Virus record (IMG/VR): IMGVR_UViG_2534681704_000008
DNA from: a virus
Lineage: Duplodnaviria; Heunggongvirae; Uroviricota; Caudoviricetes
DNA: 47,550 bases
Strand: one strand, 5' to 3'
Shown here: in pieces, positions 40,166 to 43,556 of the stretch
Layout: each line of letters starts with the position of its first letter
Position numbering within the stretch: the stretch's first letter is position 1
Notes under the pieces: model-generated
What the model saw: only the letters and a program-made list of their open reading frames with translations
The model's database searches: none
Told to the model about the DNA's origin: nothing
Position numbers and translations under genes: made by a program

Positions 40166-40329
40166 AAGCGTGGTCTCTCGAAGAGCTGGCGCTGCTGTGG
40201 CGACACTCAAACGCTGAAGTCGCAGAGATTACCGGCCGCAGTATTGATGAGGTCGGAGATAAGCGGCTGCAAACCAATATTGAGCGTAATGGCTGGGATG
40301 TAAACGATCCGGAACGGGAGGATGCATGA
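40162..40329 (+). CDS. Small hypothetical protein absent from the ORF track
   Basis: 55 aa ([25 protein letters not shown]...), ATGA overlaps at both ends. Confidence 0.45.
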   Translation: MKAWSLEELALLWRHSNAEVAEITGRSIDEVGDKRLQTNIERNGWDVNDPEREDA

Positions 40330-41387
40330 GCAAAGTAGGCGATTATTTCTTTGAGTTCCCGGCGTCGCGCGGCACGCAGGGTTGTACGGTGACTTACATG
40401 ATCACAGCACCTGCCCGCGCACTGACGCGCATACTTGCCTCCGACAATCACGGCAGCACGCTCGATCGTTCTCAACGCGAAATTAACCAGGCGCGAGTGA
40501 AGAAGTTTTACCAGTACCTCGTCAATGCATACCAAAATAAAGAGCCCTTCATCATCCCGCCACTGGTCGGCAACTGCGACGCGGATATTGAGTTTGAAGA
40601 GTTCGGCAATACGAATGTGGGCGTCGCACGCTTCCCTATGGATGCAGTGATCAAGCTGTTCGACGGCCAGCACCGCGCAGCCGGATTAGCTGAGTTCTGC
40701 CGGACTTACGGAGAGCCAATCAGCATCCCGCTGATGCTAACCCATAATCTCCCACTGAAGGCACGCCAGCAGTTCTTCTCCGATATCAATAACAACGTCT
40801 CGAAACCTTCCGCTGCGATCAACATGGCCTATGACGGGCGTAATGAAGTTGCACAGGGGATGGTGACGTTCCTGTCTCAGCACGACACCTTCGCAGAGGT
40901 GACAGACTTCGAGCACAACGTCGTACCGGCGAAAAGTAAGTTGTGGGTGAGCTTCAAGGCGCTTAGCGACGCGACGGCCAAGTTTGCCAACGCGGGCGGC
41001 AAGCCGCTGGAAATGGGCGACATCGAATCCATCTGGGAGGCCTGGTTGGCCCTGACGCAGATCGAAGCGATTCGCCACGGCACCAGCCAGGCAGACTACA
41101 AGCGCGACTACATTCAGTTCCACGCAGTGATGATTAACGCCTTCGGCTATGCCGTTCAGCGGCTGATGGCTGACCACTCAATCGTAGATATCGTCCAGAT
41201 GATTGAGGAACTGGCGAGCAGTGCGGGCTCCTCTGAGATGGAAGACTTCTTCCTGATTTCCCGGTGGGGTGGTGTCTGCGTGAATGCCGAAAAAGACCGT
41301 CCAACGGTCATTGCCTCCGTTCCGGCGCAGAAATCTGCTGCAGACCGTCTCGTCAAAGTTATCCTGGCGAAAAGCCTTGAGGAGTAG
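40326..41387 (+). CDS. DGQHR-domain protein (ParB/DndB-like superfamily)
   Basis: 353 aa with an exact FDGQHRAAG motif. Confidence 0.7.
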   Translation: MSKVGDYFFEFPASRGTQGCTVTYMITAPARALTRILASDNHGSTLDRSQREINQARVKKFYQYLVNAYQNKEPFIIPPLVGNCDADIEFEEFGNTNVGVARFPMDAVIKLFDGQHRAAGLAEFCRTYGEPISIPLMLTHNLPLKARQQFFSDINNNVSKPSAAINMAYDGRNEVAQGMVTFLSQHDTFAEVTDFEHNVVPAKSKLWVSFKALSDATAKFANAGGKPLEMGDIESIWEAWLALTQIEAIRHGTSQADYKRDYIQFHAVMINAFGYAVQRLMADHSIVDIVQMIEELASSAGSSEMEDFFLISRWGGVCVNAEKDRPTVIASVPAQKSAADRLVKVILAKSLEE

Positions 41388-41850: not shown

Positions 41851-42510
41851 ATGACCGAAAAATACGCTCTTATCTACGCAGATCCTCCCTGGTCTTACGG
41901 CAACACCATCAGCAATGGCGCCGCTGCCGACCACTATTCCACCATGAAGCTAATCGACATCAAACGCCTGCCAGTCTGGGAACTTGCCGCCGAAAACGCT
42001 GTGCTGGCGATGTGGTACACCGGCACGCATAACCAGGAGGCGATCGAACTGGCCGAGGCCTGGGGCTTTACCGTTCGCACTATGAAAGGCTTTACCTGGG
42101 TGAAGCTGAACCAGAACGCCGAACTGCGCATCAACAAGGCGCTGGCTGAGGGTGAGGTCATCGACTTTTACGACTTCCTCGATCTGCTTAACGCCGAGAC
42201 TCGCATGAATGGCGGCAACCACACCCGGGCCAATACTGAAGACCTGCTGATAGCTACCCGCGGCGCCGGGCTGGAACGTAAGCACGCCGGGATTAAGCAG
42301 GTGGTGTACAGCCCACTCGGCGCGCACAGCGAAAAGCCGTGGGAAGTTCGGCACCGGCTGGAGCTGCTTTATGGAGATGTGCCGCGCATTGAGCTATTTA
42401 GCCGCAGCGCGGCGCCGGGCTGGGATCACTGGGGGAATCAGTGCGCCACCGCCGCGGTGGAACTGCTTCCCGGCTGCGCCATCGATGTTGTGAAAACGGA
42501 GGCCGCATGA
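41851..42510 (+). CDS. N6-adenine DNA methyltransferase, MT-A70-like
   Basis: 219 aa with the DPPW catalytic motif (YADPPWSYGN) near the N-terminus. Confidence 0.75.
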   Translation: MTEKYALIYADPPWSYGNTISNGAAADHYSTMKLIDIKRLPVWELAAENAVLAMWYTGTHNQEAIELAEAWGFTVRTMKGFTWVKLNQNAELRINKALAEGEVIDFYDFLDLLNAETRMNGGNHTRANTEDLLIATRGAGLERKHAGIKQVVYSPLGAHSEKPWEVRHRLELLYGDVPRIELFSRSAAPGWDHWGNQCATAAVELLPGCAIDVVKTEAA

Positions 42511-43556
42511 CGCCAGCAGCTTATTACAACGAAATCGACCCGTTCGCTGCTCAGTGGCTGCGTAACCTGATCGCCGGCGGTCATATCGCCCCGGGCGAAG
42601 TTGATGAAAGGAGTATTGAAGATGTCACACCTGACGATCTGCGAGGATTCACGCAGTGCCACTTCTTCGCCGGAATTGGCGTATGGTCTCATTCCCTGCG
42701 GCTCGCCGGATGGCCTGACGATAAACCAGTCTGGACCGGCTCCTGCCCGTGCCAGCCTTTCAGCGCGGCAGGCAAAGGAGATGGGTTTGCTGACGAGCGG
42801 CACCTTTGGCCCCACTTCTTCCACCTCATCAGCGAGCGCAGACCTGAGCATGTCTTTGGCGAACAGGTTGCAAGCGGTAACGCAAACACATGGTTCGACC
42901 TTGTACAAGCTGACCTGGAAGGAATGGAATACGCCTTCGGGCTTGTGCCGTTTGCGGCAGCGGGCGTCGGTGCTCCGCACATCAGAGAGCGGGCCTACTG
43001 GGTGGCCTACGCCAACAGCCAGATCGACGACCGGCGCAGGCACATCGGGGCGGATGGGAGGAATGAACATTCAGACTGCAGTAACCCTGACAGGTTGGCC
43101 GACACCCACAACGATCGACAACAATCAGGTTGCTGGCCAAGCTGCGGCTGCAAATGCACCAAAGCGGGGATCCACACTGGGCGGAGCATCAAGGCTTGCA
43201 GGATGGGTGACGCCAACCTCACGCGACTGGAAGGACTCGGCGGGAATGACTGCGCAGCGGGATGGCAAGGAGCGACTGGACCAGTTGCCTCGCCAGGCGT
43301 ACACATGCGGGCCCTTGAGGTTAACGGTTTTTGGCGAGATGCGGACTGGCTCTTTTGTAGAGATGGAAAATGGCGTCCAGTTGAACCCGGCACATTCCCG
43401 CTGGTTGATGGGGCTGCCGCGCGCCTGGTGCGAGTCGAGCCCGGGGTGGCAAGAGTGGCAAGCAGCAACCGCGTCGGCCGCCTGAAAGGGTACGGCAACG
43501 CCATAAACGCACAGGCTGCGGCTGAATTTATCCGGGCCTATATGGAGGGTTTATGA
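42507..43556 (+). CDS. DNA cytosine-5 methyltransferase (Dcm-like); reading frame possibly disrupted
   Basis: Motifs I (FFAGIGVW), IV (SCPCQPFSAAGK), VI (VFGEQV), VIII (HIRERAYW) and X-like (RLKGYGNAINAQAAAEFI) in the annotated frame; the +1 frame also looks coding in the middle. Confidence 0.6.
   Translation: MTPAAYYNEIDPFAAQWLRNLIAGGHIAPGEVDERSIEDVTPDDLRGFTQCHFFAGIGVWSHSLRLAGWPDDKPVWTGSCPCQPFSAAGKGDGFADERHLWPHFFHLISERRPEHVFGEQVASGNANTWFDLVQADLEGMEYAFGLVPFAAAGVGAPHIRERAYWVAYANSQIDDRRRHIGADGRNEHSDCSNPDRLADTHNDRQQSGCWPSCGCKCTKAGIHTGRSIKACRMGDANLTRLEGLGGNDCAAGWQGATGPVASPGVHMRALEVNGFWRDADWLFCRDGKWRPVEPGTFPLVDGAAARLVRVEPGVARVASSNRVGRLKGYGNAINAQAAAEFIRAYMEGL

Follow-up and report, generated by a model that had tools for sequence, protein, structure and literature searches.

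We describe a nested gene pair in the IMG/VR virus record IMGVR_UViG_2534681704_000008, a tailed-phage (Caudoviricetes) stretch of 47,550 nucleotides (nt) that is referred to below as the window. The annotated C5-cytosine DNA methyltransferase gene of the window (frame A, or alpha) encloses a second, same-strand open reading frame (ORF), displaced by +1 (frame B, or beta). Judging by purifying selection that falls on the two frames in interleaved segments, both are very probably coding. The arrangement probably constitutes a conserved same-strand nested pair of ~860 nt within a phage methyltransferase gene, and with it a widespread enzyme of the alpha/beta kind known from M.EcoHK31I. By analogy with that enzyme, it is reasonably likely that the products of A and B function as a heterodimer.

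Selection and openness of the two frames across relatives

Megablast located the gene in phages of Klebsiella, Salmonella (including epsilon15 gp41), Escherichia and Edwardsiella. The gene of the window equals one of these loci, L004, in translation (100%, residues 1-349), and both have open stretches of 1152 nt in A and 912 nt in B. The first three relatives to be inspected each had more than 320 open codons in A and in B despite diverged and indel-rich DNA in the middle of the gene. Of 84 close loci, 81 have both frames open, and across the 84 the open lengths are ~325-420 codons in A, ~275-358 in B and ~35-120 in the third frame. The exceptions among the close loci are L026 and L029, which have a stop in B, and L040, in which A is truncated.

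A scan of bacterial genomes, one for each species, with a profile of diverse B proteins yielded 80 loci, of which 78 are testable because the LNP anchor motif is absent from two. The set covers Enterobacterales, Pseudomonas, Burkholderiales, Sphingomonas and Ochrobactrum as well as Desulfovibrio, Lentisphaerae, Planctomycetota and Peribacteria, and its B proteins are 41-77% identical. The frame one base upstream of B is open in all 78 loci; at the anchor point, the open stretch of the third frame is ~12 codons. Motifs I, IV, VI, VIII and X are all present in 68 loci, with four of the five in the other 10. The same two-frame layout is found in the Salmonella phage SI7, Edwardsiella phage eiAU, Bordetella phage PHB09, Erythrobacter phage R6L and an Acidobacteria (Tunturiibacter) phage, and tblastn with B gave matches in 213 isolated phage genomes. 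With B inside A, in the +1 frame and kept in ~160 loci, the gene has the nested-beta layout of M.EcoHK31I.

Selection along the gene was followed by the codon phase of the diversity among 79 distinct genes and by nonsynonymous-to-synonymous polymorphism ratios (pN/pS) from protein-guided codon alignments; the two approaches agree, and the resulting segments are listed in Table 1. The zones of double constraint are 110-190 nt long; constraint in the last of them belongs mainly to A over its first half (NGFWRDADWLFCRDGKWRPV) and mainly to B over its second (NPAHSRWLMGLP). Indels leave frame B intact.

Openness was compared with simulations in which synonymous codons of the constrained frame were permuted; the test is conservative because the protein and the exact codon content of that frame are unchanged. 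Frame B is open upstream in 76 of 76 loci (simulated mean P(open) 0.21) and frame A is stop-free through the middle in 76 of 76 (0.19). In the diverse set, the middle of A, on average 122 codons long, has 0 stops in all 73 of 73 loci, where 2.4 stops were simulated (mean P(open) 0.105) and the third frame has a mean of 4.5 stops. The loci being phylogenetically related, none of these counts are independent trials. With purifying selection in both frames and openness beyond chance, the gene classes as a long same-strand overlapping pair.

Table 1. Positions, in window coordinates, of the nested genes, their motifs, the segments distinguished by selection, and neighbouring genes
Feature	Position	Strand	Details
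Frame A ORF (alpha), C5-cytosine methyltransferase	42507..43556	+	349 amino acids (aa); PF00145, E=1.7e-13
Frame B ORF (beta)	42622..43485	+	+1 relative to A, 287 aa, wholly within A; likely start ATG 42622
Putative Shine-Dalgarno sequence AAGGAG	42608..42613	+	8 nt upstream of the B ATG (42622-42624)
Frame A FFAGIG	42663-42689	+	motif by sequence
Frame A PCQ, catalytic motif IV	42747-42755	+	motif by sequence
Frame A FGEQV	42855-42869	+	motif by sequence
Frame A PHIRERAYWVA	42975-43007	+	motif VIII strand RERAYWVA at 42984-43007
Frame A spacer	43008..43316	+	~100 residues, amino acids unconstrained, frame always open
Frame A conserved block NGFWRDADWLFCRDGKWRPVEPG	43323..43391	+	consensus NGFWRDADWLxCRDGKWRPVEPG
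Frame A motif X (GNAI)	43494..43505	+	pattern match; A pN/pS 0.05-0.16
Frame B helix and beta-hairpin module (SLANRLQAVTQTHGSTLYKLTWKEWNTPSGLCRLRQRASVLRTS)	42829..42975	+	overlaps frame-A motifs VI-VIII; double constraint
Frame B repeat GWPTPT, first	43000-43017	+	W-x-T-P
Frame B repeat GWPTPT, second	43093-43110	+	W-x-T-P
Frame B repeat GWVTPT, third	43201-43218	+	W-x-T-P
Frame B motif-IX-like QLNPAHSRWLMGLPRAW	43378..43428	+	invariant or near-invariant columns in 49 diverse B proteins
Heptamer CCCGGGG (C_CCG_GGG in frame B)	43440..43446	+	candidate -1 slippery site, rejected
Segment constrained in A only	42507 to ~42790		variation at A third positions; A pN/pS 0.02-0.12; B pN/pS >1.7
Segment constrained in A and B	~42810-42990		all phases quiet; A-synonymous pS 0.07-0.18; B pN/pS 0.36-0.75
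Segment constrained in B only	43000-43320		variation peaks at B third positions; B pN/pS 0.36-0.74; A pN/pS 0.94-1.9
Segment constrained in A and B	43320-43430		all phases very quiet; 84-89% DNA identity in Bordetella, Burkholderia and Pseudomonas phages
Segment constrained in A only	43450 to end		A pN/pS 0.05-0.16
DndB-family protein	40326-41387		PF14072, E=1e-46
MT-A70 adenine methylase	41851-42510		PF05063; directly upstream of frame A

A sequence-only reading of this DNA, made by a model without database searches, had reported protein-like signal in two frames, and the lengths given above (~275-420 codons for A and B taken together, against ~35-120 for the third frame) agree with it. The motifs I, IV, VI and VIII and the C-terminal GNAI that it placed in the annotated frame are all found there (FFAGIG, PCQ, FGEQV, PHIRERAYWVA and GNAI), motif X thus lying back in frame A. 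Its impression that the +1 frame reads as the more protein-like in the middle is upheld, B being the selected frame across ~43000-43320, and frame A is Cys-rich there as it said, with 7 Cys within ~100 residues. Of the three GWPTPT repeats that it listed at 43000, 43094 and 43201, the first is exact, the second starts at 43093, and the third is in place but reads GWVTPT; the DNA copies do differ mostly at frame-B third positions. The motif-IX-like segment that it saw in the +1 frame exists, with a likeness to motif IX at the level of pattern. It had called it unusual that both frames stay open; they do, but this is not peculiar to the present genome.

The two predicted products

Frame A is a C5-cytosine DNA methyltransferase by its ordered motifs IV, VI and VIII and its significant profile match. 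The PF00145 match covers residues 76-175 only, and residues 74-171 align with M.HhaI in the comparison with PDB sequences over motifs IV-VIII only, RERAYWVA pairing with RERIYMIC. The DruM and MTase_II models of PADLOC likewise match frame A, and phrog_363 covers it over its full length. No motif IX was detected in A, because the listed Pfam, PADLOC and PDB alignments of C5-methyltransferases end at motif VIII. The N-terminus (42507-42760) is unusual in that YYNEIDPxAAxWLRNLI comes first and FFAGIG lies just ~25 residues before PCQ. As Pfam aligns from motif IV onward only, motifs I-III may be arranged differently here than in canonical C5-methyltransferases. The DNA of the conserved block retains 84-89% identity even to Bordetella, Burkholderia and Pseudomonas phages. 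Within this block, positions 43329-43374 form a tandem duplication of eight codons (TTTTGGCGAGATGCGGACTGGC / TTTTGTAGAGATGGAAAATGGC), whose two copies give FWRDADWL and FCRDGKWR in frame A, FGEMRTGS and FVEMENGV in frame B.

The open stretch of frame B begins at 42571, and the ORF listing gives 42601-43485. The AAGGAG ahead of the likely start is written by the E-R-S codons of DERSIEDV in frame A, and the B ATG sits 122 nt before the PCQ codon, after GA(A/C)(A/C)GGAGTATTGAAG in nearly all enterobacterial loci. GAT, which creates the ATG, is the Asp codon before Val for 80 of 82 close loci and for 49 of 59 diverse ones, unlike the neighbouring Asp codons, for which GAC is the usual choice. The Arg codon is AGG or CGG in 77 of the 82 close loci and the Ser codon AGT or AGC in 80, and these jointly form GGAG; an ATG stands at -122 or -110 in 81 of 82 close loci and in 54 of 59 diverse ones. 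These codon counts indicate that the B start codon and Shine-Dalgarno sequence are maintained by biased choices among codons that are synonymous in A.

The first ~65 residues of B form a leader that is poorly constrained as protein. The constrained module begins near 42810-42850, where homology to the nuclease-fused relatives described below starts as well. Consensus sequences from 49 diverse members begin with SLxSRLxARTxxLGSTLYKLTWKxWxTPSGxSxxRLRASVRRTS, continue through LAGWPTPxAxD repeats with variable spacers, and end with PARLTASGEMLTGSxAGMESGGQLNPAHSRWLMGLPxxWD. The predicted B protein of the window includes LTWKEWNTPSGLCR, DWKDSAGMTAQR and LDQLPR. The W-x-T-P element occurs in 1-5 copies in the tabulated loci and, by eye, in more in the longer B proteins P0181 and P0231. 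The short core of the motif-IX-like segment is written LNPAHSRWLMGLP and follows the pattern LNPxxSRWLMGLP. The motifs of B persist in proteins that are 33-53% identical to that of the window. Some stretches of B that look conserved are shadows of frame A: the codons of PCQPFSAAG give LSARQAKE when read at +1, and those of LRAYGNAI give the CAPTETPS of relatives.

The B family is very large, with 6746 hits and 9108 cluster representatives at 50% identity. Its matches include phrog_1008 and phrog_31772, both labelled 'DNA methyltransferase'. The B profile gave chance hits only against PDB sequences. Its sole hhalign match to M.HhaI pairs QLNPAHSRWLMGLPRAWC with KLHPRECARVMGYPDSYK, which is motif IX at residues 273-290, and at E=0.47 is not significant; residues 73-174 of the M.HhaI sequence used were confirmed by the PDB alignment. 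In the AlphaFold2 model of B alone, a helix (residues 70-90) and a hairpin (95-118) are the best part, with predicted local distance difference test (pLDDT) values of 72-82. A short helix covers the LNP...LMG motif and the remainder is unstructured, a model that is compatible with, though no proof of, a chain folding on a partner.

B has been called as a gene thousands of times, and the NCBI-named full-length frame-A hits record a single 'DNA cytosine methyltransferase' per locus. Phage K1ind2 (L173, GU196280) lists both genes, as a 'C-specific methylase' of 309 aa and a 'Mte8-like protein' of 265 aa; the latter is an annotation label whose source could not be traced in the literature. PMG1 (L089) and Tunturi_1 (L171) annotate the frame-B ORF only, and frame A of PMG1 also has an N-terminal frame break.

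The gene lies in the phage early region, and its neighbours include a YqaJ exonuclease, a DndB-like protein and an MT-A70 adenine methylase. The stop of the MT-A70 gene overlaps the ATG of frame A (ATGA), which suggests that the two methylases are translationally coupled. Opposite the dual-coding region, antisense ORFs run at 42438-43070 (-; 210 codons) and 43007-43504 (-; 165 codons), and these probably arise because stop codons are depleted on the + strand.

Insertions, variants and rival explanations

In the two-chain enzyme that we propose, A would supply the large S-adenosylmethionine-binding and catalytic domain, with motifs I-VIII and X, its chain being threaded through a disposable spacer, variable and stop-free, to reach the conserved block and motif X. 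B would be translated separately from its own ATG at 42622 behind AAGGAG and would be the equivalent of the small, DNA-recognition domain, comprising the helix-hairpin, the W-x-T-P repeats, a Gly-rich loop and motif IX. A and B would then assemble into an active enzyme, as in M.EcoHK31I.

Several relatives carry insertions, which point independently to translation of each frame. In two metagenomic loci, L084 (4001-5449) and L085 (4001-5644), an endonuclease VII/HNH domain is inserted between frame-A motifs VI and VII. Frame B encodes the domain (PHROG E=1.9e-26 and 3.5e-18), in fusion with the B module, which is kept downstream of the insertion. Across the insert, frame A has 0 stops over 190 (L084) and 195 (L085) codons (simulated P(open) <=0.001) and the third frame has 10 and 16. 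B is also fused to endonuclease VII/HNH domains in proteins P0137, P0139 and P0186. In L172 (636-3131; EBPR siphovirus 2 gp44), an intein-like insert of ~450 residues (FPAGALVLT...VVHN), recognized by eye, stands in frame A at PC|Q. Frame B has stops inside it and reopens directly before the LSARQAK shadow. Since the insert has this position, frame A would be translated through motif IV in this phage.

The sequence-only reading had explained the two signals by two frame changes, one of +1 near 42991 and one of -1 near 43445. Recoding of this kind would yield one polypeptide that follows A to ~42991, B as far as CCCGGGG and then A again, a canonical enzyme with motifs I-VIII, target-recognition domain, IX and X. 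The pattern of selection does go from A to B to A, and C_CCG_GGG fits the form X_XXY_YYZ in frame B. The heptamer exists, at 43440-43446, but it is not conserved: it is found in 32 of 62 distinct close loci (30 CCCGGGG, 2 CCCGGGA), thus missing in half of them, and 68 of 77 distant loci have none at all. Recoding would not require A to be open through the middle or B to be open upstream, and both are, far beyond the supposed junctions. The conserved start codon and Shine-Dalgarno sequence of B, ~380 nt upstream of the supposed +1 shift, and the zones in which both frames are constrained also count against it. A single chain holding both motif VIII and the first GWPTPT is impossible because 42984-43007 overlaps 43000-43017. 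Homologues of full length, such as epsilon15 gp41 and hundreds of NCBI proteins (at least 120 of them named 'DNA cytosine methyltransferase'), are colinear with frame A at 99-100% coverage, the very outcome that the sequence-only reading had given as refuting its frame changes. An artificial A-B-A chimera takes the Pfam alignment to profile position 320 of 324 (55.9 vs 51.1 bits), and control chimeras score about equal. We therefore rejected frameshifting at CCCGGGG or at the GGG run, the site not being conserved and the frames being open past the junctions, and we consider the single-polypeptide explanation very improbable.

A search with the artificial A-B-A chimera found rare frame-fusion variants (P0392-P0412) and one A-B-A ORF; it found no canonical single-frame lineage. 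P0392-P0412 switch from A to B at differing points of the variable middle and, since they end at the B stop, are without motif X. P0235, P0081 and P0128 also switch between frames A and B, and like the former are probably 1-nt indel variants or assembly errors. The A-B-A ORF, a natural variant that speaks for recoding, is L174 (53-1105, protein P0395), which reads A(1-147)-B-A(motif X) on one metagenomic contig. It arises from a 1-nt deletion before motif VIII, which is absent, and a 1-nt insertion before motif X, and its IX-X connector is diverged; the lack of motif VIII and the single contig count against its use as a precedent. P0392-P0412, L174, L026, L029 and L040 look like occasional mutations or assembly errors.

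Frame-switching indels in such relatives (P0392-P0412, L026, L029, L040) could point to a sequencing error or a decaying pseudogene behind the two-frame signal of this genome. Both ORFs are intact, however, L004 with its identical translation has the same open stretches, and ~160 independent loci share the layout. An error or pseudogene is ruled out because the two frames are conserved together across close, diverse and NCBI homologues, and we give it practically no weight. That B is untranslated, its conservation coming from constraint on the DNA or RNA or from the codon bias of frame A, would accord with the shadows LSARQAKE and CAPTETPS and with a frame B that we have only read in DNA. Against this, variation at 43000-43320 peaks at B third positions (B pN/pS 0.36-0.75, A at least 1), indels preserve the frame, and its motifs persist at 33-53% identity around variable spacers. 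A recognisable nuclease domain is fused in frame B, and the start codon and Shine-Dalgarno sequence are preserved by codon choice; an untranslated B is thus scarcely tenable.

B may also be a genuine protein of an overprinted gene that shares its DNA with the methyltransferase gene without completing the enzyme; its function could be modular DNA binding or targeting, anti-defence or regulation. The endonuclease VII/HNH fusions, the absence of significant similarity to known methyltransferase domains, and the wide variation in W-x-T-P copy number and spacers are in keeping with this. However, all 78 testable diverse loci have B within this methyltransferase gene, the only setting in which it has been found, and its most conserved element has the form and place of motif IX, ~20 residues before motif X, in a gene in which none was detected in A. 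Moreover, M.EcoHK31I, the only experimentally studied nested case, is a two-subunit enzyme. We regard a separate function as unlikely, although it deserves serious consideration.

Several points weigh against the two-chain enzyme that we favour. Because nuclease fusions to B exist, the module can serve other partners and may have a role other than methylation. Among Pfam, NCBIfam, PADLOC and PDB entries B finds no significant match, its AlphaFold2 model is mostly of low confidence (mean pLDDT 58), and its resemblance to motif IX is pattern-level only, as the hhalign value of 0.47 indicates. The model of A (pLDDT 29.5) lends no structural support to a missing small domain, its input alignment, of sequences >=79% identical only, being too shallow. 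The Pfam scores of chimeric and control constructs differ by 2-5 bits only, which is no meaningful gain. Frame B is known here from sequence alone. The likeness to M.EcoHK31I (a C5-cytosine methyltransferase with an out-of-frame nested beta) was drawn from its published description, and its target-recognition domain is assigned to alpha, unlike our proposal, which places it in beta.

It is further conceivable, though distinctly doubtful, that B is a portable DNA-targeting subunit in which the variable W-x-T-P array sets specificity, shared by the methyltransferase chain and, in some phages, a fused endonuclease VII/HNH. If true, a minimal specificity subunit would be common to modification and cleavage, would be encoded in the DNA of its own partner, and would be kept in all related loci that were examined.

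Significance and comparison with known systems

The nested-pair interpretation is of greater interest than a frameshift would be. Provided that both products are real, an overlap of ~860 nt that extends from Enterobacterales to Acidobacteria phages would be among the longest and most widespread same-strand pairs in bacteria and their viruses. The second protein is missing from most database records and almost never annotated, and expression, specificity prediction or structure modelling from frame A alone may concern half an enzyme. Such a large natural family offers a system for the co-evolution of two proteins on one DNA, and is suited to the study of intein or homing nuclease insertions that close neither frame.

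A familiar gene embedded in the +1 frame of another is Rz1 within Rz of phage lambda, where the two products act as one complex; the spanin function is unrelated, and Rz1 is short (~60 codons). M.HhaI (PDB 1mht) resembles the present pair in that frame-A motifs IV-VIII align with it, GNAI fits motif X, and LNPAHSRWLMGLP of B resembles KLHPRECARVMGYP. It differs in having the small domain and motif IX on the same chain, where those of the window are in another frame and presumably on another chain, and motif I of the window is only ~25 residues from motif IV.

A literature search recovered the M.EcoHK31I precedent and a 2025 paper on a hidden HNH, and no description of this nested gene. In the latter paper, an HNH ('ShiLan domain') is hidden in the other frame of an actinophage methylase whose own frame is stop-free (PMC11855218). 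L084 and L085 are similar, with a nuclease in another frame and a methylase frame that is stop-free across it. The actinophage case is a mobile insertion with its own start and stop, described with no resident second gene in the methylase, whereas the nuclease of L084 and L085 is fused to the resident B and belongs to these relatives only, not to the window.

The subunits of M.AquI are consecutive (motifs I-VIII, then IX-X), with a short overlap. This natural two-polypeptide C5-methyltransferase is split, as alpha and beta, within the variable region (PMC3404938). The pair of the window is instead nested over ~860 nt, and its motif X is on alpha, that of M.AquI being on beta.

To our knowledge, M.EcoHK31I is the one described C5-methyltransferase with a nested out-of-frame beta. 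Its beta is 176 aa in length; that of the window is longer, at 287 aa or ~82% of alpha, and has the W-x-T-P repeats and the helix-hairpin. M.EcoHK31I, which recognizes YGGCCR, is an alpha/beta C5-methyltransferase whose beta is encoded out of frame entirely within the alpha gene; alpha has motifs I-VIII and X, beta has motif IX, and activity depends on the two together (PMC2836561, PMC3404938). Expression of beta is driven by internal start codons in its frame, which had to be removed in order to abolish the activity of an alpha clone (PMC2836561, PMC3404938). The gene of the window differs further in that the variable region of its alpha is evolutionarily unconstrained and in its location in a phage early region beside an MT-A70 methylase. 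M.EcoHK31I has so far been treated as a one-off; if our interpretation is true, its nested architecture would be the norm for a family of phage and prophage methyltransferases.

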